DNA from: Solirubrobacteraceae bacterium
GTDB lineage: Bacteria; Actinomycetota; Thermoleophilia; Solirubrobacterales; Solirubrobacteraceae
NCBI GenBank assembly: GCA_052148275.1
Contig: JBKQIR010000013.1
Coordinates: 17,446 to 81,445 of the forward strand
Direction: 5' to 3'
DNA: 64,000 nt
Shown here: in pieces, positions 5,694 through 30,414 of the stretch
Position numbering within the stretch: the first letter of the stretch is position 1
Layout: the number at the start of each line of letters is the position of its first letter
Made by a program: the position numbers and the translations under genes
The notes under the pieces: model-generated
Told to the model about the DNA's origin: nothing
Database searches by the model: none
What the model saw: only the letters and a program-made list of their open reading frames with translations

Positions 5694-7289
5694 TTGCTCG
5701 TGGCGGCGGCGCTCGCCGGAGCGCTGCTGGCGGGCGGCGCGTCACCGGCCGCCGCGGCGAACCCGCCGGGGACGGTGACGCTCGGCAGCACGAGCGGGAC
5801 ACCGAGCGCCAACCCGTGCCTGTCGATGATCCCATGCACTTATGTGCCGTTCAGCAACGCCGAGGTCCCCGAGCTGCAGGTGCCCGCCACGGGGACCGTG
5901 ACAAGCTTCTCGGTCAACACCGGCAGCAGCGGCGGGATCGTGGAGTTGCGTGTGCTGACGCCCGGCTCCGGAGGCGCTTTCACGGGAGCCGGCACGGGCC
6001 CGTCGGAGACGCTCGCCACGACCGGCGTCAACACCTTCACGGTGTCGATACCGGTGAAGGCCGGTGACGTCCTTGGCCTCGACAACGCCACGAGCGCGCT
6101 CATCTTCGCGACCGTCGGCGCCCCCGCGTTCACCGCCTATTATGAGGAGCCGTCGCTCGCCGACGGCAAGACGGCCGTTCCCAATCAGGACGCGGCCGGC
6201 GACCAGCCGCTCCTCAGCGCCACCGTGAAGCTCACCCCGGCGTCGGTCAACAGCTTCTCCTCGAGCTGCTCCGGCACGCTCCCTTCCACGGGCGGCAGCT
6301 GCACGCTGCAGTGGACGCTGTCCAATACGAGCACCTGCACACTGTCGAGCTCGCCGGACCTGCTCGGCGGCACGCAGTCGACCGGGTGCGCCGACAGCGC
6401 CACCAACACGAACCAGGTCAGCTTTCCCCAGAACACAGGCACCACGCCGGTGAGCTACACCTTCACGCTGACGGCGACCGGAGCCTCCGGAACGACGCCT
6501 GCGAGCCGGACCACGACGGTCACCGTGCAACCCTTTAGGCCCACCCCGCCACCACCGCTGAGCGCGTCGATAGTCAAGGCCGCGACCGTCGGCGACCAGC
6601 TCCTGTTGACGATCGCGTGCCGCAACGGCTCGGCGACGGCCACCTGCAGCGGGCCGGTGACGGTCACCTCGCACGTGACGACACAGGCGGGCAAGCCGAT
6701 CGAGGTCGCCGCGCGGGCGGCCAGGCCCGCGCGAGGGAAGGCGAAGCCGGCGCCGAAGACCACAAGCGCGGTCCAGGTCGCGAGTGCGTCCTATTCGACC
6801 GCGACAGGCACGACCGCGACCGCGACGCTGACCCTGAACGCAACGGGAAAGCGGCTCCTCAACCGGTTCTACACGCTCCCTGCGACGGTCACGATCGGCG
6901 GCACCACGGCGCTCACGACACGAGTCAGCTTCAGCTACGCACGGATCACGTCGTTCATCGAGTTCGACGTGCAGTACGGACCGGCCTCGAGCTTCGCCAG
7001 GCAGCTGTCGATCGTCGGCCTCCCATCGAAGGCGAGCGTGGCGGTCATCTGCCGCGGCGGCGGCTGCCCGTTCGCGCACCGGACCTTCTCGCCGCACGGG
7101 AGCACGCTCGTGCTCAGCTCCGCGTTCGCGCACAGCCACCTGGCCCCCGGAAGCACCATCGAGCTCGAGATCACCGCGGCCAACCACATCGGCAAGGTCG
7201 GGCTCCTGAGGATCCGCGGCGGTCAGCCGCCGACGTTCAGCACCCTCTGCCTCCCTCCGGGCGCGCCCGCGCCACTGGCCTGCGTGTAG
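5694..7289 (+). CDS. Secreted Ser/Thr/Gly-rich multidomain surface protein (probable true start 5666 via a 1-nt frameshift)
   Basis: Signal peptide LLVAAALAGALLAGGASPAAA, several beta-rich modules with paired Cys, and a C-terminal 4-Cys domain. Confidence 0.7.
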   Translation: MLVAAALAGALLAGGASPAAAANPPGTVTLGSTSGTPSANPCLSMIPCTYVPFSNAEVPELQVPATGTVTSFSVNTGSSGGIVELRVLTPGSGGAFTGAGTGPSETLATTGVNTFTVSIPVKAGDVLGLDNATSALIFATVGAPAFTAYYEEPSLADGKTAVPNQDAAGDQPLLSATVKLTPASVNSFSSSCSGTLPSTGGSCTLQWTLSNTSTCTLSSSPDLLGGTQSTGCADSATNTNQVSFPQNTGTTPVSYTFTLTATGASGTTPASRTTTVTVQPFRPTPPPPLSASIVKAATVGDQLLLTIACRNGSATATCSGPVTVTSHVTTQAGKPIEVAARAARPARGKAKPAPKTTSAVQVASASYSTATGTTATATLTLNATGKRLLNRFYTLPATVTIGGTTALTTRVSFSYARITSFIEFDVQYGPASSFARQLSIVGLPSKASVAVICRGGGCPFAHRTFSPHGSTLVLSSAFAHSHLAPGSTIELEITAANHIGKVGLLRIRGGQPPTFSTLCLPPGAPAPLACV

Positions 7290-12483: not shown

Positions 12484-12630
12484 CCCTGCTCCCATTCGTT
12501 CGATTACAGCCAGCCCCGCTGGAGCGGCAACTACATTCGATTATCGCGGGGTCGATGGTCCGTTCGGCGCATCAGGCGCGGCACGGCGTGTATGAGGGCG
12601 CCATGCATAGGTCGTATACTCGCGCGCTCC

Positions 12631-13782
12631 ATGACCCGCACGGAGACATCGAACCCCTTCCGCTTCTCCGCCCCGCTCGAGCGCGCTGATGACCTCGTCG
12701 GTCGCGACGCGGAGCTGGCGGCGCTCGAGCGCCTCGCGCGCGCCGGCACCTACACGCTGCTGGAAGCGCCGCGGCGCTACGGCAAGACGAGCCTGCTGAA
12801 GGCTGCCGCGCTGCGCTGGCGCGAGCCGGGCAACGCCCTCGCGGTATGGGTCGACTACTCGGCGGTGCTGACGATCGACGAGGCGGCCCGGCGGCTCGAG
12901 GACGCGTACGTGGACCCCCGCGCGCACGGCGGCCTGAGCGACCTGCTGCGCGAGCTGGTGGCGAGCGTGCGCCTTCGCCTCGGGCCGCTCGAGCTCGCAC
13001 CCCAGCGCGGCGGCACGCCGCCCGAGCTCGATCCGGCGGCATCGATGCACCGGCTGCTGGAGATCCCGGTCGAGGTCGCGCACCGCACCGGTCACCGTGC
13101 GCTCGTGACCTTCGACGAGTTCCAGGACGTCCTCAGCGTCCCCGGCCTCGACGGCCTCATGCGATCCCACATCCAGCACCACGCCGAGCACGTCACCTAT
13201 GTGTTCGCGGGCTCAGAGCCGACGATGCTCACCGCCCTGTTCGCGGATCGCGCGCGGCCGCTGTACGGCCAGGCGAAGCCGATGGCGCTGCCGCCGATCG
13301 CCCCCGACCTGCTGGCGGACTCGATCGCGCGGCGCTTCGAGCATACGGGACGCTCCGCGGGGGAGGGCGGGCAAGCGGTCGCGAGCTTGGGAGCCGGGCA
13401 TCCGCAGCGCACGATGCTGCTCGCTTGGCAGCTGTGGGAGCTGACGCCGCCGGGGGAGGTGGCGACGCTCGAGCTCGCGCACGAGGCGCTCGCGCAGGTG
13501 ATCGCGGATCGCCGGCCGGAGCTCGACGCGACCTGGCGCGCGCTCAGCACCGTCGAGCAGCGGGTCGCGGTCGCCGTTGCGCATGGCCTGGCGCCGAGCG
13601 GGTCGAGAGCGCAGCGCGCGACCGGAATCCGCAACCGCTCGGCCGCCGGCCAGGCGGCGAACTCGCTCGTCGCCGCCGGCCAGATGCGACGCGACTCCGA
13701 CGGGCACGTGGCGCTCGTCGATCCGCTGTTCGCCAGCTACCTGCGCAACCGCCACCCGCTCCCTGTGGGATCCTGGCCGTAG
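12631..13782 (+). CDS. Stand-alone P-loop ATPase (archaeal-ATPase / STAND-like)
   Basis: LVGRDAEL, Walker A APRRYGKTS, Walker B LVTFDEFQ, FAGSE, and a C-terminal winged-helix-like end with DPLFASYL. Confidence 0.85.
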   Translation: MTRTETSNPFRFSAPLERADDLVGRDAELAALERLARAGTYTLLEAPRRYGKTSLLKAAALRWREPGNALAVWVDYSAVLTIDEAARRLEDAYVDPRAHGGLSDLLRELVASVRLRLGPLELAPQRGGTPPELDPAASMHRLLEIPVEVAHRTGHRALVTFDEFQDVLSVPGLDGLMRSHIQHHAEHVTYVFAGSEPTMLTALFADRARPLYGQAKPMALPPIAPDLLADSIARRFEHTGRSAGEGGQAVASLGAGHPQRTMLLAWQLWELTPPGEVATLELAHEALAQVIADRRPELDATWRALSTVEQRVAVAVAHGLAPSGSRAQRATGIRNRSAAGQAANSLVAAGQMRRDSDGHVALVDPLFASYLRNRHPLPVGSWP

Positions 13783-19223: not shown

Positions 19224-20414
19224 TTGCGTATCTTGATCCTGGGCGGGGACGGCTTTTGTGGCTGGCCCACGTCTCTGCACCTGTCGGCGTGTGGCCATGA
19301 GGTCGCGATCGTGGACAACCTCGCTCGCCGCACTGCCGATGTCGAGCTCGAAGCGGAGTCGCTGACTCCGATCAGACCGCTCGGCACGCGCCTGGCGGCG
19401 TGGCGCGAGCTGAGTGGACGGGAGATCCCGTTCCACCGCCTCGACGTCGCCGCCGACTATCGCGAGCTGCTCGAGCTGCTGATCGAGTGGCAGCCCGATG
19501 CGGTCGTTCACTTCGCTGAGCAGCGCGCCGCGCCCTACTCGATGAAGAGCTCGTGGCACAAGCGCTACACGGTCAGCAACAACGTCAACGCGACCCACAA
19601 TCTGCTCGCGGCGCTCGTCGAGTCGCAGCTCGATGCGCACGTCGTGCACCTCGGGACGATGGGCGTGTACGGCTACGGCACGGCCGGCGTGAAGATCCCC
19701 GAGGGGTATCTGCGGGTTCGCTTCGACACCGACGAGGGTGCCGAGGTCGAGCAGGAGATCCTCTATCCGGTCAACCCCGGCAGCGTCTACCACATGACCA
19801 AGACGCAGGATCAGCTGCTGTTCGCGTTCTACAACAAGAACGACGGGACGGCGGTGACGGATCTCCATCAGGGGATCGTGTGGGGGACGCAGACGGCGCA
19901 GACGCGGCTCGATGAGCGCCTGATCAACCGCTTCGACTATGACGGTGACTACGGCACGGTGCTCAACCGGTTCCTGATGCAGGCCGCGGTCGGCTATCCG
20001 CTCACGGTTCATGGCACGGGAGGTCAGACGCGGGCGTTCATCCACATTCAGGACACGGTCCGTTGCATCCAGCTTGCGATCGAGAACCCGCCGGCGCCCG
20101 GGTCGCGGGTGCGGGTGTTCAACCAGATGACCGAGTGTCATCGCGTGATCGATCTCGCGAAGCTCGTGTCGAGCCTCACGGGCGCGGAGATCGACCACGT
20201 CGAGAATCCTCGTAACGAAGCTGCGGAGAACGATCTGTATGTCGAGAACCGCCAGCTCGTCGAGCTTGGTCTCGAGCCGATCCGTCTGCAGGACGACCTG
20301 CTCTCGGAGGTCACCGAGATCGCCCGCGCGTACGCTGATCGTTGCGACATGACGAAGATCCCGTGCGGCTCGAAGTGGATCCAGCGCACGGAGCAGACCG
20401 CCGACAGGACGTAG
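19224..20414 (+). CDS. sqdB: UDP-sulfoquinovose synthase
   Basis: LGGDGFCGWPT, HFAEQRAAPYSMKS, HLGTMGVYG, YHMTK, DLHQGIVWG, RFDYDGDYGTVLNRF, GTGGQTRAFIHIQD are SqdB/SQD1-specific motifs. AAGGAG SD precedes the TTG. Confidence 0.9.
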   Translation: MRILILGGDGFCGWPTSLHLSACGHEVAIVDNLARRTADVELEAESLTPIRPLGTRLAAWRELSGREIPFHRLDVAADYRELLELLIEWQPDAVVHFAEQRAAPYSMKSSWHKRYTVSNNVNATHNLLAALVESQLDAHVVHLGTMGVYGYGTAGVKIPEGYLRVRFDTDEGAEVEQEILYPVNPGSVYHMTKTQDQLLFAFYNKNDGTAVTDLHQGIVWGTQTAQTRLDERLINRFDYDGDYGTVLNRFLMQAAVGYPLTVHGTGGQTRAFIHIQDTVRCIQLAIENPPAPGSRVRVFNQMTECHRVIDLAKLVSSLTGAEIDHVENPRNEAAENDLYVENRQLVELGLEPIRLQDDLLSEVTEIARAYADRCDMTKIPCGSKWIQRTEQTADRT

Positions 20415-20518: not shown

Positions 20519-20926
20519 TTATTCGCTGGTCGACAGCGATGCTTCGGGTCGGGTCGGCTGAAAGAGCTCGATTGGGTTGCCGCTCGGATCGTCGAGGAGG
20601 ATCTGGTTGCCTCCGACGCCGGTAACGATGTCGTTGCGAAACCGGACGCCGGCATCGCGGAGCGCTGCGACGGACGCTGGGAGGTCTTCTAGTTCGACCA
20701 TGAACCTGTTCCAGCCGCCGGGTTCGGGACGGGTCCCGTCCGGCATCGCTTGCCCACCACCGCCTGCGCCGCTCGGTGCGCTGAGAACCAGTCGAAGGTT
20801 GCCTCGCGTGAGCATCGCAAAGGTGGGAGCGGGGTGCATTTGCTCTTCGAAGCCGAGGTGCTCGCAGTAGAACGCGATTGCGGCGTCGACGTCATCGACG
20901 ATGTAGCGGACGCTGACGGTAACCAT
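20519..20926 (-). CDS. VOC (glyoxalase/bleomycin resistance) family protein
   Basis: SVRYIVDDVDAAIAFY...LLDDPSGNPIELFQP. Confidence 0.9.
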   Translation of the reverse strand: MVTVSVRYIVDDVDAAIAFYCEHLGFEEQMHPAPTFAMLTRGNLRLVLSAPSGAGGGGQAMPDGTRPEPGGWNRFMVELEDLPASVAALRDAGVRFRNDIVTGVGGNQILLDDPSGNPIELFQPTRPEASLSTSE

Positions 20927-20971: not shown

Positions 20972-21334
20972 TCACGTGTAGAGCTCCCGGTCTGGCTCAT
21001 CGATCTGCACGACGGTCCCGTCAGGGGCCGGAACCAGGAGGGAGCGGCCCCATTCCTGGTCGACGATCGTGCCCTCGGGCCGAAAGCCCGCTGTTCGCAG
21101 CCTTGCCTCGACCGCCTCGAGTGGCTCGTCGGTGACGAAGTTCAACGCCAGCCCGGTTCGTCCGTGCCCATCGGCGGCGATGGTGGCGTCGTGCAGGCAG
21201 AGCTCGCCGCCGGCCGCCGCGAGCTCGATCCAGTGCCCGGAGCGCGAGCGCACAGCGGGAGTCAGGCCGATCGCTTCATAGAACCGAAGGGCCTCTGCGA
21301 CGTCTGGGACGAAATGAATCGGCCTGACCCTCAT
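20972..21334 (-). CDS. VOC family protein
   Basis: [18 protein letters not shown]...[22 protein letters not shown]. Confidence 0.85.
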
Positions 21335-21591: not shown

Positions 21592-24567
21592 TCAGTGCTC
21601 GTCGGGGGCCGGTTCTGCGCGTGACCCCGCTCCGGTCCCGTCGGCCCCGGGTGGAACGACGTCCGGAGTAGGCGACGCCGGCTTGCCGAGCGACTTGGGG
21701 CGCAAGGGCGCGACCATGCCCCTGTAGGCCACCGTCTCGGCGCACAGCACGCGATGAACGAAACGGGGCTTGCCATGGAGGTCGAACGTGCACGGGTCCG
21801 ACAGCACTTCGATCACGACCCAGGGCAGGCCCTGGACGGTCGTGTAGCTGAGAATCCGGATGTCCATCAGCACGACGACCTTCACGCCCGCGTCCGTCAG
21901 GCCGACGAACACGCCGGGCGTGATCACATGTCCCGGAGAGATAGCCAGCGTCTCGAGCGTCTCGAGCGCCTCGTGGTAGACGATCTCGCCGGGGTGAACC
22001 TGCTTCATGTACTCGTCGTAGTCGCCGTCTCTCAGGTGCGCGATCTCGTCCTGGACCAGTTGGCTTTGGGCGCCGAGGTCGCGGCAGCGATCGAGAGCCT
22101 CGGGCGTGTCGTCGTGTCGGGGGTCGGGCACCGCGCCGCACTTCACCTCGTCGAGCGGGACGATCGCGCCGGTCGCTCCCTTCGGGCCGGTGCATGTCGC
22201 ATCAAACCTGCCGGGGAGCTCAAACGAGTAGGGAGTCGCGACCGCAGGCACGATGACCTTCACGGTCCCGCCAGGCGAGAGATCGGCTTTGCCCTGGAAG
22301 TCGGAGCTGACCAGCGGTGAGTCCTCTTCGTCCAGGTCGAGGTGGCGGTCGATCGTGTATTTCTCGATCGAGGATCCCTTGTCGACGTCGAAGCGGCACG
22401 GCAGCTGATCCTTGTTGTCGGCGAGCTTCCCGATGAACACGTACTCGCGGTAGATCGCGTCGCTGCCCTCGGTGCCGATGTTGATCCGGGCCGCGACGAC
22501 CTCGCAGCCGGCCTGCTGCTCGATCTGCTTGCGGACGATGGGCGGAAGCGAGCGGATCGACGCGCGGCCGTACTTGAACGTGAACCGGTCATGGCCCGCG
22601 AGCTGGCGTTCGGGTGGACAGTCCTTCTCGTTGTTGCAATCGCGCGTCGGGACGTCGACGAGCAGTGGTGTGATGTCCTTGCACATGACCGGGCTGACCG
22701 CTCCGAACCAGCCGCGTGTCGTGTCGTCGCCGGCGTGACAGAACGGGTCGTGGAAGGCGAACGTCAGATCGCCGCCGACCTCGAGTTCCTCGATGTTGCT
22801 GTTGCCTTCGACCTTCAGCTTCGCCGGCTTCGGGAGCACGTGCAGGAGGTTGCTGTCGAGGTCCGAGGGGCTCAGATAATCATCGGGATCTCGCGTTGCC
22901 AGTCGCAGCGGCTCGGCGCTTACGGCCTCCTTGGCGACGCCGACGCCGCCCTGCAGCCCGCTGCCTCCGAACAGCTCCAGCCCTGCGAACACGAACGTGC
23001 GCATCAGCTTCGGTCCGTCAGCGTCCCGGGTCCCGATCAAGACGATCGCCGCGCCCGCGTCGACTGTCAGCTTGTCGATGAGCGGTCGCGCGATCCCGGG
23101 GAGATGGTCGGCGAGCCAATCCTTGATCTTGCTGATCGGCAGGTCATGCGAGGCCCGTAGCATCACGGCGCCGAAGCTCTTCGCCCCAGCCGTCTTCTCT
23201 TTGTCGCCGCAGTGCTCCGGCGGCGTGGTCTCGTCACAGGTCTTGGCGCGCTCCGGCATCGGGACCTCGCCGCACTCGACGGGGCCGACGGGAAGCAGCA
23301 ATCCCGGCAGGGAACGGTGGCTCCTCATGCATTCCTGGTCCCAGTCCCGGTCGACGAGCAACCAGAACTTCCCGTCCCCGAGGACCAGCTTGCCCACCCC
23401 CGGGTCCAGCCGCGCCTCGCCGACCAATGGCGATGGTGCCCACGGATCGTCTGGGTTCTTGGTCGCGAGCTGGACCGGCACGGTGGCTTTCGCTGCGACG
23501 AGCTCCTGGTCCTTGACTCGCAGCTCGCAACCATCGGAATCGAGCGGCGTCCGCGTCCACACGAATCGCCGGAAGGTCGCGTGTCCGGCGACGCCGATGT
23601 CGCCGATGTTGACCGCGATCGAGTCCGGGCCATGGCAGGCCACCTTGACGAGGAAGCGCTCCGAGAACCGGGTCCGGTCCGTCTCGGAGCAGAGGTCGTC
23701 GGGCTTGCGGTCGACCGGCACGATCGCTACCCGCCGGTCGTCGGCCTGCTCGAGCGGTTCATTCGGGTTGCGCCGGATCTCCGCCAGGCTCTGGCCGACG
23801 TGCTGTTCCCTGAACAGCGCCCCGGCGGTGTCGACGCCGGCTGCGGCCAGTTCCCGGTTGAGGACATCGAGCACGCAGCTCGAGCGGTTCGCCGACAGCG
23901 GTAGGTTGTGAGCCTGTCCGGCTGTGCGGCTCGCCTCCCCGATCACCGCGACGTAGGCGCCCTGGTGCTGGATCAGTTCCTTGAGCGCGGGCACGATCGA
24001 CTCACGGATGAACGTGAGGTGCCCAGGCTTGACGAACGACTTGTCGATGTCGAAGTTCGTCAGCAGCCACGCCTTGTCGCCGACCTGCTCCCCGATGACG
24101 TGCGAGTACTCGGTGAAGCCCACCGTCTTGCCCACGCCGTCACCCTGTTCGAGCTTCGCCGGCAGATCGCACGGCGAGCGCTGCAGAATCCCGCCAGGCG
24201 AGTCAGAAGCGCGAGCTCGGCGGGAGAGCACGGCGCCATGGAGGGCGTTGGCGTAAGCCCGGCGGCTGCGCTCGTCGATCAGCGACTCCTCGTCGTGGCA
24301 TTTGCCGCCACAGGTGCAGCGGCCCGCACAGCGGGCAAGCGGACGCTCTCTGGCGGCGCCGGGGCCGGCCCGCAAGGCGGCCATGCCGGCTACCGCTCGG
24401 TTGCCCGCGCTGCGCTGAAGCGCAATCGCGGTCTGCTGAGACAGACCGCTCGGCTCGCGACGGCCGCAAGTCGGCGCGCAACACACGTCCAGCGAATCCG
24501 GCGGACGTGAGCGTCGGCCAGGACCCTCCCTTCGAGCTGACCGAGCGACTGCAACTGCAGCGGCCAC
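21592..24567 (-). CDS. 991-aa hypothetical protein: eCIS-cargo-like N-terminus, OmpA-like domain, three Cys-containing repeats
   Basis: LQRSAGNRAV, CAGRCTCGGKC, ILQR; NFDIDKS...GEASRTA...NLPLSANR...DRRVAI; three internal repeats of about 170-190 aa. Start uncertain. Confidence 0.75.
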   Translation of the reverse strand: MAAAVAVARSARREGPGRRSRPPDSLDVCCAPTCGRREPSGLSQQTAIALQRSAGNRAVAGMAALRAGPGAARERPLARCAGRCTCGGKCHDEESLIDERSRRAYANALHGAVLSRRARASDSPGGILQRSPCDLPAKLEQGDGVGKTVGFTEYSHVIGEQVGDKAWLLTNFDIDKSFVKPGHLTFIRESIVPALKELIQHQGAYVAVIGEASRTAGQAHNLPLSANRSSCVLDVLNRELAAAGVDTAGALFREQHVGQSLAEIRRNPNEPLEQADDRRVAIVPVDRKPDDLCSETDRTRFSERFLVKVACHGPDSIAVNIGDIGVAGHATFRRFVWTRTPLDSDGCELRVKDQELVAAKATVPVQLATKNPDDPWAPSPLVGEARLDPGVGKLVLGDGKFWLLVDRDWDQECMRSHRSLPGLLLPVGPVECGEVPMPERAKTCDETTPPEHCGDKEKTAGAKSFGAVMLRASHDLPISKIKDWLADHLPGIARPLIDKLTVDAGAAIVLIGTRDADGPKLMRTFVFAGLELFGGSGLQGGVGVAKEAVSAEPLRLATRDPDDYLSPSDLDSNLLHVLPKPAKLKVEGNSNIEELEVGGDLTFAFHDPFCHAGDDTTRGWFGAVSPVMCKDITPLLVDVPTRDCNNEKDCPPERQLAGHDRFTFKYGRASIRSLPPIVRKQIEQQAGCEVVAARINIGTEGSDAIYREYVFIGKLADNKDQLPCRFDVDKGSSIEKYTIDRHLDLDEEDSPLVSSDFQGKADLSPGGTVKVIVPAVATPYSFELPGRFDATCTGPKGATGAIVPLDEVKCGAVPDPRHDDTPEALDRCRDLGAQSQLVQDEIAHLRDGDYDEYMKQVHPGEIVYHEALETLETLAISPGHVITPGVFVGLTDAGVKVVVLMDIRILSYTTVQGLPWVVIEVLSDPCTFDLHGKPRFVHRVLCAETVAYRGMVAPLRPKSLGKPASPTPDVVPPGADGTGAGSRAEPAPDEH

Positions 24568-24599: not shown

Positions 24600-25778
24600 T
24601 CAGCCGTATCGGTGCACGAACGAATCGAGGCGCAGGAGCGCCTCTTGGAGCTGTTCGAGCGACGACGTGTAGGAGAAGCGCACATGGTGCTCGGCGTCGA
24701 AGACGCCAAAGTCATCGCCCGGGACGACGGCCACGCCGGCTTCGTTGAGCATCCGGCTCACGAGCTCGGAACTGTCGCCGAAGCGGTCGCAGCGGGCGTA
24801 GACGTAGAACGCCCCCTGTGGCATCACCGGCACCCCGAAGCCGAGTTCACGCAGGCCGCTGACGAGCAGATCCCGACGGGTCTGGAAGAGCCGCCGTCGT
24901 TCCTCCACGATCGCCCAGACCTCGGGCGTGAACGCCGCCAGGGCGCCGTACTGAGCCGGGACCGGGGGCGAGATGTAGAGGTTCTGAGCCAGCTTCGTGA
25001 CGGCATCCATGGCCCACTCGGGACAGACCAGCCAGCCCAGCCGCCAGCCGGTCATGCCGAAAGTCTTGGAGAAGCTGTTGACCACGAAGACGTCATCCGA
25101 GGCGCATAGTGCGGTCGACGGAGGCCTGTCATACACGAGCTCGCTGTACACCTCGTCGACGAAGCACAGTCCGCCCTGCTTCGCCGTCCACTGCAGGAGC
25201 GCCGTCAGCTCGTCGGGCGCGATCGCGGTGCCGGTCGGATTCGAGGGTGTACCTACGAGCAGCCCGCGCGCCCGGTCGGTCCACAATGGCGCGACCGACC
25301 CGATGCTCAGCTGATAGTTGTCCGCCGGACCGACGTGCGCCCCCACCGGCTCGGCGCCGTAGAGGCGGATCAGGTTGCGGTTGCACGGATAGCCGGGGTC
25401 GCTCATCAGGACCTGATCGCCGGCGTTGAGGGTCGCCCCGAAGGCGAGCAGGAGCGCGGCCGAGCCTCCGGAGGTCACCACGATCCTGCCGACCGGAACC
25501 TCGGTCCCGAAGCGCTCGGCGTAATACCGGCTGATCGCTTCCCGCAGCTGCGGGATCCCGAGCGAGGAGGTGTAGTGGACCTGACCGTCCGCGATCGCCC
25601 TGGTCGCCGCGTCGACCACGGGCGCGGGCGTGCCGAAGTCGGGCTCGCCGGCCACGAGGCGCACCACCGAGCGGCCGGTTGCCTCCACCTCCCACGCCTT
25701 CTCCATCACCTCGACGACGCGGAACGGCGCGATGCCGTCCATGCGGGCAGCAAGGCGCTGCTCGGCCAGTCGCGTCAT
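24600..25778 (-). CDS. PLP-dependent aminotransferase, class I/II (AspC-like)
   Basis: AGEPDF, GIPQLREAI, DPGYPCN, PSNPTG, DEVY, NSFSKTFGMTGWRLGW (PLP lysine). Confidence 0.95.
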   Translation of the reverse strand: MTRLAEQRLAARMDGIAPFRVVEVMEKAWEVEATGRSVVRLVAGEPDFGTPAPVVDAATRAIADGQVHYTSSLGIPQLREAISRYYAERFGTEVPVGRIVVTSGGSAALLLAFGATLNAGDQVLMSDPGYPCNRNLIRLYGAEPVGAHVGPADNYQLSIGSVAPLWTDRARGLLVGTPSNPTGTAIAPDELTALLQWTAKQGGLCFVDEVYSELVYDRPPSTALCASDDVFVVNSFSKTFGMTGWRLGWLVCPEWAMDAVTKLAQNLYISPPVPAQYGALAAFTPEVWAIVEERRRLFQTRRDLLVSGLRELGFGVPVMPQGAFYVYARCDRFGDSSELVSRMLNEAGVAVVPGDDFGVFDAEHHVRFSYTSSLEQLQEALLRLDSFVHRYG

Positions 25779-27103: not shown

Positions 27104-27210
27104 GGGGTGCTCCTCGTGGGATGTGATTTCGTCCTGCGCCCAGCAGACTCGTGCAGGCGCGTCGATCCAGCGTCAAACGAGCGTCAAACCGCGCGATAGG
27201 CTTTGCTGCG

Positions 27211-30200
27211 GTGCTGCGCGCACGTCTCCTTGGAGCGTTCGAGGTCGAACTGAACGGGAGGGTTCTCGACTCCTCCCCGTCGCAGCGCCCATGGGCGGTG
27301 TTCGCGTATCTCGCGCTCGCGCCGCGGCCGGTTTCGCGCGCCGAGCTGGCGACACGGTTCTGGCCGGACGTGCTCGACCAGAGCGCCCGCGCAAGCCTGC
27401 GGAGTGCGCTGTGGACCCTCCGTCGCCAGCTCGGCGAACGGCTCGTCGTCGAGGGCGACCGCGTCGGCCTGAGCGACGCCGACGGGCTGTGGATTGATGC
27501 GCGGGAGTTCGAATCGCTGGCGGCCGTCGATCCCGAGCAGGCACTCGAGTTGTGTCGCGGCGAGCTGCTCGAAGGCTGTCAGGACGACTGGGCGATCTCA
27601 GCACGTGAGCGTCATCGCGAGCGCGTCATCGCGCTGCTCGAGGAGCAGGCGCGCCGCTGCGAGCGGCGGGGTGACCCCCGTGTGGCGATCGATATCACAC
27701 GCCGCGCGGTGGCGTGCGACCCGTTCGACGAGGAGGCGCACCGGCGATTGATCGTCCGGCTGGCCGGCGCCGGCGATCGCGCCGGCGCGCTGCGCACCTA
27801 TCGCACGCTGGCCGAACGACTGCGCCGCGAGCTTGGCGTCGCGCCCTCGGCGATGACGCGAGAGCTCGTGGCGCGTCTGAGCTCCGAGGCGCCGGAGGCG
27901 CCGGGTGTCAGGCGCGCGCCTGTCCCTGGGTCGTTGCCGCTCGTCGGCCGGGATCGCGAAGTGGCGGAGCTGGAGCACGCCTGGCGGGCGGTCATCAACG
28001 GGACCGGCTCGGCCGCGCTGATCCGCGGCGAGGCGGGGATCGGCAAATCACGGCTGGCCGGCGAGCTGCGGCTGCGCGCAGGCTCGTCCGGGGGGCTGAC
28101 AGCAACCTCCGCGGCGCTCGACCTGGGCGGAACCGCCCCCTTCAGCCTCTGGGCCGAGCTGATCCGCGAGCTGTTGCCTGTTCTGTCCGCGCCGCCGGCG
28201 GATGCCGGCTGGCCCGATGACCTCGCGGCGCTGACGTCTGAGCTGCCGTCGCACTTCCCACGCGGCGCGGCGGCGCGGTCGGACCTCGCGCCGGATCTCC
28301 AACGCACGCGGCTGTTCGAAGCGGTTGTGGCGCTACTCGGCTGGGCCGCGCGCAAGGGACCGTTGCTGCTCGTGCTGGAGGACGCTCACAGCGCCGACGT
28401 GTCGAGCCTGGAGCTGACGGCATACGCTGCGCGCAGGGCGGCGCGCCTGCCCGTGATGATCGTCCTCACGCGTCGTGATCTTCCGCCGAGCGCCGCCGCC
28501 GATCAGCTCGAGCACGCGCTCCGGTCCCGCGATCTGCTGGCCTGTGAGATCGAGCTGGGACCGCTGCCGGCGCACGCGATCGCCGGGCTCGCCCGCGCCG
28601 CCGCGAGGCTGAGTGACGACGACGTGACGCACGTCGTCGCATGCGCGGAGGGCAATGCCCTGCTCGCCGTCGAGACCGCACGGGCGTTGGAGCGTGGCCA
28701 GGGCGGGGTCGCCGCGAGCCTCCGCGGATCGACGCGGGCAACGCTCGCGCCGCTCGCCGCCGAGGTCCGACGGCTCGTCGAGATCGCCGCCGTCGCAGGC
28801 CGCCCGCTCGACAGCGTCGAGCTTGGTCAGCTCGCGCTCGAGGATCCCGACGAGGCCGCCGCGCAGGCGCTGGAGACCGGGTTGCTGCTGTGGACCGACG
28901 GCGGGATCGGCTTCCGCCACGCGCTCTTGCGGGATGCGGTCTTCGCCGAGACCGCGGCGCCGCGGCGCCGCGGGCTGCACGCACGCTGGGCCGAGGCTCT
29001 GCTCTGCAGCGAGACGGCCGGTGCGATCCCGCGCCCGGCCGAGGTGGCTCGGCACCTGCGGCTCGCCGGCAGGGATGCCGACGCGGTGCCCCAGCTTGTC
29101 CGCGCCGCCACCGCGGCGCGCGCGGTTGCGGCGCTCGACGAGGCGATCGCGTTCCTACAGGAGGCGCTCGCGATCGCGCCGGGACGCGCGGAGATGTGGC
29201 TCGAGCTCGGCGAGCTCGAGGCCTGGCAGGGCCGCCGCGAGCAGGCCGAAGACGCGTTCGTCCGCGCGATCGAACTGCTCGACACGGTCGAGCCGCTCCT
29301 GGTTGCGCGCGCGTGGCTGCGCCGCGCGCGCGCCTACCACGGTCCGATCTGCGTCCCGCGTGCCGTGCTGGAGAGCGCTCGCAATGCGATCGAGCTGCTC
29401 GAGCGTGCCGAGACGCCCGCGCCGAGGGAGCGCAGCGAGGCGCTGGCTGCGTGCGCATGGGCGGAGGCCGTCGCCGGCAGCGTCGAGGAAGCCGAGTGCC
29501 TGCTCGCCGAGATCAGCTCGGATGGGTCACCCGGCGATGATCTGCGGACCTACGACGTCGGTCACGCTCGCGCGCTGACGTTGATGCGGCGAGGTCGCTT
29601 TGTGGAGTCCTACGGTCCGTCGATAGCGGCGGGCGAGGCGATCGCGCGCGTCGGGCGGCCCGACCTCGGCTACGGCTGCTGGGCCAACGCCGCCAGTGCG
29701 GCCGCCGGCGCCGGCGAGCCCGAGCGAGCGCTCGAATTCCTTGATCGTGGCACGGCCGCGCTCGCCGGTCATGGGCTCAGAAGCCTGGAGATACATCTGC
29801 TGGCCGCGCGGGCGTTTGTCCTGCGAGGGCTCGGACGGCTCCAGGAGGCACGTTGTGCCGCTGATTGCGAGCAGGCGCTCGCCGCGCAGCTGGCGCAGCC
29901 GCAGCTGATGGCAATGGCGAGCCACGACCGCGGTCTCATCGCCCTCCAATCGGGAGAGCACGAGCTGGCGGCCGTTCTGCTCGCCGAGTCGCTGCGTGAG
30001 GGCGCGCCGATCAGCCGGCCGCTCACGCGCCTGGCGCTGGCTGAGGCGCTCGCGCGCGACGGTGAGGCGGGGCTGGCCGCCGAGCAGCTCCGCGCCGCCG
30101 TGCTCGAGCCCGTGAGACCCAGCGACTTCCCCCGCGCGCTGGTTCCGAGGCTCGCCCATGTCCAAGCCCTGATCGCTCTCGTACGCGGCGATCACGAGGA

Positions 30201-30414
30201 AGCGGTCCGCAGGCTACAGGAGTCTGTGCGCGGTTGGGAGCGCCTCGTCATGCGTGCCGTCGACGCCGAGGGCATCACGACCGTGCTTGCTGATCTGGGG
30301 CGCCCAGTTGTCGGCCTCGTGGACCCCGAGCGCGAGCTCGACCGCGCTCAGTCCGAGCTCGCAGCGATTCAATCACCGGCGCCAACAGGGAGATCAAATG
30401 CCGTCATTCCATGA
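27211..30414 (+). CDS. SARP/AfsR-like regulator: wHTH + BTAD + AAA ATPase + TPR-like repeats
   Basis: RLLGAFEV, SLRSALWTLRR, DPFDEEAHRRLI (BTAD), LVGRDRE, GEAGIGKSRL (Walker A), LVLEDAH (Walker B), FRHALLRDA. Confidence 0.9.
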   Translation: MLRARLLGAFEVELNGRVLDSSPSQRPWAVFAYLALAPRPVSRAELATRFWPDVLDQSARASLRSALWTLRRQLGERLVVEGDRVGLSDADGLWIDAREFESLAAVDPEQALELCRGELLEGCQDDWAISARERHRERVIALLEEQARRCERRGDPRVAIDITRRAVACDPFDEEAHRRLIVRLAGAGDRAGALRTYRTLAERLRRELGVAPSAMTRELVARLSSEAPEAPGVRRAPVPGSLPLVGRDREVAELEHAWRAVINGTGSAALIRGEAGIGKSRLAGELRLRAGSSGGLTATSAALDLGGTAPFSLWAELIRELLPVLSAPPADAGWPDDLAALTSELPSHFPRGAAARSDLAPDLQRTRLFEAVVALLGWAARKGPLLLVLEDAHSADVSSLELTAYAARRAARLPVMIVLTRRDLPPSAAADQLEHALRSRDLLACEIELGPLPAHAIAGLARAAARLSDDDVTHVVACAEGNALLAVETARALERGQGGVAASLRGSTRATLAPLAAEVRRLVEIAAVAGRPLDSVELGQLALEDPDEAAAQALETGLLLWTDGGIGFRHALLRDAVFAETAAPRRRGLHARWAEALLCSETAGAIPRPAEVARHLRLAGRDADAVPQLVRAATAARAVAALDEAIAFLQEALAIAPGRAEMWLELGELEAWQGRREQAEDAFVRAIELLDTVEPLLVARAWLRRARAYHGPICVPRAVLESARNAIELLERAETPAPRERSEALAACAWAEAVAGSVEEAECLLAEISSDGSPGDDLRTYDVGHARALTLMRRGRFVESYGPSIAAGEAIARVGRPDLGYGCWANAASAAAGAGEPERALEFLDRGTAALAGHGLRSLEIHLLAARAFVLRGLGRLQEARCAADCEQALAAQLAQPQLMAMASHDRGLIALQSGEHELAAVLLAESLREGAPISRPLTRLALAEALARDGEAGLAAEQLRAAVLEPVRPSDFPRALVPRLAHVQALIALVRGDHEEAVRRLQESVRGWERLVMRAVDAEGITTVLADLGRPVVGLVDPERELDRAQSELAAIQSPAPTGRSNAVIP

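Follow-up and report, generated by a model that had tools for sequence, protein, structure and literature searches.

Polymorphic effectors of the Photorhabdus virulence cassette (PVC) and extracellular contractile injection system (eCIS) type, marked by the domain DUF4157 (PF13699), are already known (PMC3482391, PMC8213781). These toxins join a constant N-terminus to variable C-termini, carry the motif LQRxxGNxA(V) in the N-terminal extension, usually have no adjacent immunity gene, and have OmpA-like ('Tox-OmpA'), peptidase, phospholipase A2 and LysM partners. Both the Tox-OmpA modules and the frequent absence of immunity genes have been described for PVC-type toxins (Zhang et al. 2012, PMC3482391). 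Here we analyze a protein whose family resembles these toxins in each respect, encoded on the minus strand at 21592-24567 of a 64,000-nucleotide stretch of Solirubrobacteraceae DNA (contig JBKQIR010000013.1; hereafter, the window). The likeness extends to two family members, P0157 and P0172, in which the N-terminal leader is combined with DUF4157. Unlike the DUF4157 toxins, the window protein has no HExxH sequence anywhere in its 991 residues, bears a cluster of four cysteines (Cys4), and is encoded away from any contractile injection system (CIS) operon. We assign a probability of roughly 0.58 to the reading that it is an orphan polymorphic PVC/eCIS-type effector, cargo for a CIS whose genes lie in another part of the genome; its loading, cleavage, target and activity we infer.

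CIS cargo is presently found mainly via operon proximity or the DUF4157 marker, because known loading signals are described as disordered and are reported not to be conserved between systems (bioRxiv 10.64898/2026.05.27.728243). In the AlgoCIS system, the disordered N-terminal domain is needed for loading and DUF4157 is dispensable (same preprint), which makes a cargo without DUF4157 mechanistically plausible. Cgo1 and Cgo2, which are cargo proteins of AlgoCIS (Xu et al. 2022, PMC8894135), are, by description, like the window protein in having a disordered N-terminal domain before the functional part. Their genes lie in the CIS cluster, whereas the window gene is an orphan and its leader has conserved motifs and cysteines. 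Streptomyces Tme (S. davawensis, PMC11126660) offers an actinobacterial CIS context, but it has DUF4157 and tape-measure-like and nuclease regions, none of which is present in the window protein.

What is new here is a conserved leader without the metallopeptidase, with a Cys4 cluster, a range centred on the Solirubrobacterales, many C-termini and many stand-alone miniproteins, together with an 850-aa body that includes three domains of no recognised fold. This leader variant is absent from Pfam, NCBIfam and the eCIS literature examined, and searching full texts for DUF4157 in combination with 'LQR' was negative. If the proposed reading is correct, a conserved, DUF4157-independent leader would offer an easy way to search whole genomes of an abundant, poorly studied soil lineage for orphan cargo. 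It would also be a defined peptide for loading tests and possibly for the engineering of cargo delivery.

The leader, its family and its relation to DUF4157

The open reading frame (ORF) encodes 991 aa, counted from the first GTG. Its codon-position GC (0.70/0.48/0.85) is typical of genes in the window, which has a G+C content of 65-74% and shows the codon-position pattern of high-GC actinobacteria. The leader occupies residues ~48-130 and is organized as follows, in order of translation:

24427..24567, minus strand: variable basic stretch or possible 5' untranslated region (UTR), aa 1-47, fast-evolving as judged against a 95%-identical relative (L018)
24391..24423, minus strand: ALQRSAGNRAV, the first leader motif, aa 49-59, in a predicted helix (aa 44-59); within the leader family, its Q, G, N and A do not vary
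24295..24339, minus strand: LARCAGRCTCGGKCH, the second leader motif, aa 77-91, a C-x3-4-C-x-C-x3-C cluster after L-x-R, present in 1-3 copies in homologues
24217..24294, minus strand: acidic stretch, then predicted helix (DEESLIDE...ALHGAVLSRR), aa 92-117, matching the 'EELLEE...LxRAV' tail of the leader module
24178..24189, minus strand: ILQR, the leader/body junction, aa 127-130; R130 is invariant in 6/6 family members

Residues 80-91, which hold the cysteine cluster, read CAGRCTCGGKCH (C80-AGRCTCGGKCH-91). The first 135 residues are basic and of low complexity (25 A, 22 R, 14 G; K+R 23 versus D+E 12; net charge ~+11), and the remainder of the protein is acidic. The initial annotation had noted ALQRSAGNRAV, the cysteine cluster and ILQR, with no Sec signal peptide, and translation bears this out: all three motifs fall within aa 1-130, and the first 140 residues contain no Sec or Tat h-region and no transmembrane (TM) segment (Kyte-Doolittle; best 12-aa window, 1.0). 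A type VII secretion-type signal, a lipobox and a Tat motif were rejected by inspection. No WXG/YxxxD-type or LXG feature was seen. An AlphaFold2 model built from a six-member alignment predicts the leader to be disordered (predicted local distance difference test [pLDDT] <50 for aa 1-131); the two helices modelled there, at 44-59 and 99-115, are short. By pLDDT, composition and hydropathy, the protein thus has the disordered, non-hydrophobic N-terminal region that is a trait of eCIS-associated toxins.

The leader recurs far beyond the full-length protein. Full-length homologues are few: five among 5.8 billion proteins, and a sixth (L005) in a Solirubrobacterales metagenome-assembled genome (MAG). 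The term 'orphan protein' therefore does not hold in its strict sense. A leader-only profile retrieved 33 proteins in a word-indexed search and, in an exhaustive search of 1.84 billion proteins, 439 cluster representatives at E<=1e-3 (66 at E<=1e-10); run locally, it matches the window ORF with E=7.5e-20. The match is always N-terminal, and in the 150 best matches it lies within about the first 150 residues. Hence, the leader is a conserved module, beyond what chance would produce. Its consensus is a-L-x-LQRxAGNRAV, then 5-25 variable residues, tLARCGAGGCTCGGxCGG, and an EELLEE-type acidic stretch. Two members (P0004 and P0005) carry two to three copies of the unit 'L-x-R-C-x-GG-C-T-C-GG-R-C + acidic helix'. 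One candidate, P0111, with ten 'LQR' repeats, was set aside since it looks like spurious repetitive translation.

Proteins with the leader span 73 to 1093 aa and differ widely in what follows it. Pfam searches of 73 longer members gave PG_binding_1 (10), Aspzincin_M35 (3), eCIS_core (2), OmpA (2), prokaryotic phospholipase A2 (2), and one each of PG_binding_3, LysM and M35; the rest had no Pfam family. A scan of genomes with a three-sequence leader alignment (598 pattern matches, at least 8 confirmed loci) placed leader genes almost exclusively in Solirubrobacterales MAGs, plus Pilimelia terevasa, with a different C-terminus in each of the matches listed. The corresponding scan of metagenomes yielded four short contigs. 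A constant N-terminal region joined to many unrelated C-termini is what characterizes polymorphic toxins and effectors. Since a conserved N-terminal module is here joined to interchangeable C-termini, the leader family has the polymorphic-effector architecture.

A large share of the family consists of little more than the leader: 75 of the 170 leader proteins examined (~44%) have at most 130 residues. We considered whether these are frameshift artefacts and rejected the idea. A 106-aa leader-only form is found on many contigs, in 26 cluster members that include a protein from a named Solirubrobacteraceae MAG, several 80-88-aa forms share the end ...AVAQR, and at one locus (L002) the M14-Amidase_2 protein encoded downstream of the leader-only gene carries its own Sec signal peptide. 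These features indicate that the short proteins are products of real genes.

Proteins of 82-108 aa that consist of the leader alone (LQR motif, CGAGGCTCGG and acidic tail) were seen at L003:10001-10249, L002:10001-10321 and L004:10001-10327. The first of these genes directly follows PspA-PspAA; the other two lie near PspC/LiaF, upstream of peptidoglycan hydrolase genes. At L004:10336-11553, 9 nt after the leader-only gene, a 405-aa protein opens with its own LQRAVGNRR motif and has no Cys cluster, making a tandem leader pair.

How does this leader relate to DUF4157? The window protein has no Pfam match at E<=1, hence none to PF13699, and a local DUF4157 hidden Markov model found no match in any frame of the window, confirming the suggestion that the core is missing. 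At aa 49-59 it carries LQRxxGNxA(V), an accessory and not a defining trait of DUF4157 proteins. We assessed the recurrence of the motif in 96 short PF13699 proteins, retrieved with a DUF4157 core query that excluded the LQR motif. The pattern [LMVI]Q[RKQ]xxGNx[AG] was present in 7/96 and in 6/13 of those with at least 95 residues before HExxH, compared to a chance estimate of ~1e-4 per protein. In P0148, a classical DUF4157 protein, ALQRSIGNAAV stands directly before each of two DUF4157 units, and two of the six extended proteins with the LQR motif (P0192, P0199) are encoded at loci that also hold sheath, gp19 and CIS tube, gp25/Phage_base_V, Pvc16_N and AAA genes. The LQR motif is thus recurrent in DUF4157 N-terminal extensions, as the initial annotation held. 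The same cannot be said of CxCGGxC, which had also been called typical of DUF4157 proteins: the CxCGG cluster was found in 0/96. Bridging examples are limited to P0157 (527 aa), where LQ..AG.RA and LARCQGACTCGGKC are followed by an acidic stretch, the whole DUF4157 domain and a C-terminal domain; P0172, where LQRAAGNGAV and CSCGGTCPRC lead into the beginning of DUF4157; and P0093, with the leader and a degenerate DUF4157 core. CxCGGxC marks a sub-family centred on the Solirubrobacterales. The window leader is thus the same kind of module as the one that stands before DUF4157 in some proteins, here joined directly to the body.

The end of the leader may be a processing site. R130 falls in the junction ILQR|SPCD. 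In other family members, h-Q/A-R motifs resembling it stand before the variable domain, and in P0148 they flank DUF4157; cleavage at R130 is plausible.

Comparison with the 95%-identical relative bears on where translation begins. The first GTG (24567), separated by 32 nt from the end of the upstream aminotransferase gene (24600), is kept in L018. The codon directly before ALQRS (24424-24426, minus strand) is ATT in the window and ATG in L018 (L018:1686), and the L018 gene is called from that ATG. From the GTG to the position before ALQRS, 13 of 47 codons differ by alignment count, 11 of them nonsynonymously and 2 synonymously; with so many nonsynonymous changes, this stretch appears to be unconstrained (a variable N-terminal tail or UTR). 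In the next 90 codons, 7 differ (4 nonsynonymous), and the ALQRSAGNRAVAG stretch (aa 49-61) shows a single change, which is synonymous. This codon pattern indicates that the LQR motif is under purifying selection. Translation may start at GTG 24567, the ATT may serve as a rare start, or the window copy may be poorly translated.

One could take the unconstrained 47 codons, the non-canonical ATT where the relative has ATG, and an NCBI-recorded product that matches neither of the two start variants as signs that the motifs are chance low-complexity sequence, lying upstream of the true start (e.g. M62) in a GC-rich genome. The conservation data refute this idea, to which we give virtually no credence. 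The LQRSAGNRAVAG codons are conserved in L018 apart from that one synonymous change, the motif is kept at the protein level in homologues with just 32-46% identity, and the leader profile finds its N-terminal matches across hundreds of clusters. A true start downstream of the motif, which the initial annotation had raised as a way in which it might be wrong, is contradicted by the same conservation.

At the P0002 locus (L017:9300-10060), a leader (LALQHIAGNRAA...CVGRCTCGGSC) lies just upstream of the called start and in another frame than the body, owing to a genuine frameshift or else to an indel introduced in assembly. Soil metatranscriptome contigs of 95-97% identity cover several parts of the window ORF, so a close relative is probably transcribed in soil, with the caveat that DNA can occur in RNA libraries. 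A scan for promoters and terminators was uninformative.

Links to contractile injection systems

The initial annotation reported no injection-system genes nearby, and this stands. No CIS gene was found among 20 window ORFs searched with Pfam, in all 64 kb searched by tblastn with 14 proteins from two CIS loci (L013 and L014), or in a further 6.9 kb that precede the first position of the window. The gene thus lies outside the interval of about ten genes around an eCIS operon within which eCIS-associated toxins are recognised (Geller 2021, Danov 2024), and DUF4157, the other mark of such toxins, is absent from the protein and from the genes up to two places away. No adjacent immunity gene was seen: the window, L001, L005, L017 and L018 have no conserved neighbour in common.

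Evidence for a CIS partner comes from two other sources. The first is a Solirubrobacterales MAG locus (L006) on a 1.44-Mb contig, found by tblastn with the L013 and L014 proteins, where a leader gene adjoins a CIS baseplate/spike/tube cluster:

L006 9941-12532, plus strand: leader-bearing gene with an 863-883-aa product (LQRSAGNRA, CKGTCTCGGRC, no DUF4157)
L006 12706-14691, minus strand: Baseplate_J
L006 14688-15089, minus strand: gp25
L006 15129-16808, minus strand: VgrG-like Phage_GPD/Phage_base_V protein
L006 16805-17446, minus strand: CIS_tube-LysM protein
L006 17451-17900, minus strand: gp19 tube protein

The leader gene and Baseplate_J are convergent and 174 nt apart. The contig carries a second leader gene (L008) at a distance of about 870 kb, an orphan like that of the window.

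In the leader protein of L006, TM-like hydrophobic segments occur together with a very long region of low complexity, rich in Gly/Pro/Ser/Ala. It resembles in this the tape-measure-related effector Tme, which likewise combines predicted TM helices with extended disorder, but it has no DUF4157.

The second source is read depth. The window is present at near-100% identity in three soil runs (X1-X3), and each of these also contains a contig ~82% identical to the L006 CIS genes. The depths are:

Run X1: CIS-like contig 60; window contig 61.1
Run X2: CIS-like contig 9.98; window contig 9.8-11.1
Run X3: CIS-like contig 8.7-10.3; window contig 9.8-10.8

In a further run (X4) both are low, at ~2-6, and other contigs touching the CIS stretches in X1 have depths of 2-22. 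Because the depths co-vary, the logic of differential-coverage binning indicates that the population of the window likely carries a CIS locus. Independently of this, Geller et al. (PMC8213781, supplement) list an eCIS operon for Solirubrobacter soli DSM 22325. It is the one positive among three Solirubrobacter genomes, and neither Conexibacter nor Patulibacter is listed with an operon.

The CIS-like contig of X1 is 19,172 bp long and aligns to L006:12719-16296. It ends ~60 nt past Baseplate_J, where L006 has its leader gene, and the break could correspond to a variable or repeated cargo region.

Taken as an effector, the protein would have kept an N-terminal addressing leader, with the metallopeptidase-like core of DUF4157 lost or never there. 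Its LQRxAGNRAV helix, L-x-R-C-x3-C-x-C-GG-x-C cluster and acidic helix, disordered and basic as a whole, would serve as the loading sequence to the CIS and would be cut off at or near the invariant LQR/R130 junction. A bolder version, which we hold tentatively and regard as rather doubtful, is that the LQR-Cys4 leader is an autonomous, conserved addressing module independent of DUF4157. A single Solirubrobacterales CIS would recruit dozens of scattered cargo genes through it, with Cys4 mediating metal-dependent docking, the 73-130-aa miniproteins acting as competitors, plugs or loading regulators, and the cargo being mainly peptidoglycan-directed.

Several observations weigh against assigning the protein to a CIS. 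At 12 of the 13 leader loci, that of the window among them, neither a CIS gene nor a DUF4157 gene lies within ~10 kb (no CIS genes were found at L001-L005, L007-L012, L016 or L017). Of the known eCIS toxins, by contrast, 88% are encoded no more than ten genes from the operon (PMC11297309). The one adjacency in 13 could be due to chance, at a rough 5-10% if there is one CIS locus per genome. The depth co-variation is based on one high-depth sample, two or three low-depth ones and assembler k-mer depths, and a co-abundant relative could account for it. A disulfide-rich, peptidoglycan-binding body would suit any export route, and a simple cargo model leaves the abundant 73-130-aa leader-only proteins unexplained. 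Finally, the proposal that the leader is a loading signal derives from comparison of sequence and context. The claim of the initial annotation that the protein is cargo for a CIS encoded elsewhere is thus upheld in part: the L006 leader protein, which has no DUF4157, adjoins a CIS cluster and a CIS contig co-varies with the window in three runs, while most leader loci are not beside a CIS and loading remains a deduction.

The mature body and alternative routes

Beyond the leader, the protein divides into these parts:

23698..24135, minus strand: OmpA-like, peptidoglycan-binding-type domain, aa ~145-290 (Foldseek), with the motifs GEAS..T...HN..LS..R..CV and DDRRVAIVPV
22108..23694, minus strand: three homologous beta-rich domains with mutual sequence similarity, aa 292-820 (292-447, 448-652 and 653-820)
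21688..22107, minus strand: C-terminal helical and beta domain, aa 821-960, with invariant Cys 828, 926 and 942
21592..21687, minus strand: proline-rich low-complexity tail, then stop, aa 961-991

AlphaFold2 confidence is moderate after aa 131. With this model, Foldseek aligned aa ~145-290 to more than 40 chains of OmpA, Pal, MotB, TagL and YiaD at a probability of 1.0 (best, YiaD 2k1s, E=1.6e-4; template-modelling score normalized to target, 0.5-0.73). NCBIfam OmpA/YiaD matches are weak (aa 172-282, E=0.05-0.13), and one homologue bears an OmpA-type name at JGI. The domain retains N..LS..R and DDRRV and is thus like OmpA/Pal/MotB domains (PF00691) in fold and in these motifs. It differs from them in scoring below the Pfam gathering threshold, in having GEAS in place of the canonical peptidoglycan-contact residues GxTD, in belonging to a monoderm actinobacterium, and in its place between a signal-less leader and three novel beta domains. 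Homology among the latter is detectable from sequence (D2 versus D4, 26% over 126 aa, E=3e-6; D2-D3, E=2e-4; D3-D4, E=0.01), and each closes with a 'PV.CG..P.P...CD'-like motif (P-V-x-C-G/K/x...P...C). A fold search with the model of aa 292-960 (pLDDT 75) gave no credible match in the Protein Data Bank (best E=6e-3, probability 0.16).

The body has 18 cysteines that every family member shares. Such invariance suggests that they form disulfide bonds and hence that the protein functions outside the reducing cytoplasm. For an effector, the mature part would then work in the oxidising compartment of the cell envelope, acting on peptidoglycan or attached to it. In Streptomyces, CIS function intracellularly. 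The target might accordingly be the peptidoglycan of a target cell or, with a CIS of that cytoplasmic type, the envelope of the producer itself.

The same body also fits a scheme in which no CIS takes part. The leader could be the export signal or pro-region of a Thermoleophilia route for cell-wall proteins (type VII-like or other), with the likeness to DUF4157 proteins reflecting a shared LQR processing motif. Peptidoglycan-binding domains are indeed the commonest leader partners (14/73, counting PG_binding_1, OmpA, LysM and PG_binding_3), as against DUF4157 in just 2/73 long members. The invariant body cysteines speak for extracytoplasmic life, leader loci with no CIS genes prevail, and leader-only genes occur in envelope-stress contexts (after PspA-PspAA in L003; near PspC/LiaF and the signal-peptide-bearing M14-Amidase_2 hydrolase in L002). 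Yet the protein shows none of the type VII, Sec or Tat features sought, and no secretion-system gene recurs in leader flanks. Moreover, the sole secretion-type machinery beside a family member is the CIS of L006, and the full leader does exist fused to DUF4157. We consider a CIS-independent route a real possibility, though not a probable one.

Alternatively, the protein might stay in the cytoplasm, with the N-terminal Cys4 as a metal-binding regulatory or interaction domain that has no part in export and the OmpA-like fold binding another ligand. The absence of a recognisable signal peptide, the GEAS substitution, the sub-threshold score for the Pfam OmpA model and the intracellular action of Streptomyces CIS are all compatible with this. 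However, the invariant body cysteines and the OmpA-like fold suggest a place in the envelope, the leader partners are of secreted type (M35 peptidase, phospholipase A2, PG_binding_1), and the leader is predicted to be disordered, not a folded domain. We regard a cytoplasmic role as unlikely.

Neighbouring genes and other features of the window

The genes surrounding that of the putative effector are:

24600-25778, minus strand: class I/II aminotransferase (Pfam)
20972-21334, minus strand: VOC/glyoxalase protein of 120 aa (Pfam), just downstream of the gene, with a sub-threshold MerR match (E=5e-4)
20519-20926, minus strand: VOC/glyoxalase protein (Pfam)
27151-30414, plus strand: regulator of 1087 aa with BTAD, AAA_16 and TPR domains (SARP/LAL type by domain content), 2.6 kb upstream on the opposite strand

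The initial annotation had listed an aminotransferase and a CopG-VOC operon. The aminotransferase and two VOC genes are there; CopG was not found, the nearest thing to it being the sub-threshold MerR match. BTAD regulators are very common in actinobacteria. One ends the CIS locus L014, and such regulators have been reported next to eCIS operons (PMC8213781).

Elsewhere in the window, two ORFs of 531 and 396 aa (5694-7289 and 12592-13782, both on the plus strand) have gene-like codon bias and no Pfam family at E<=1e-5. At 20000-20400, runs X1-X3 contain short contigs, with a depth of ~98 in X1 compared to 61 in the flanks; this excess suggests that the epimerase gene contains a short segment that is repeated or shared between strains.

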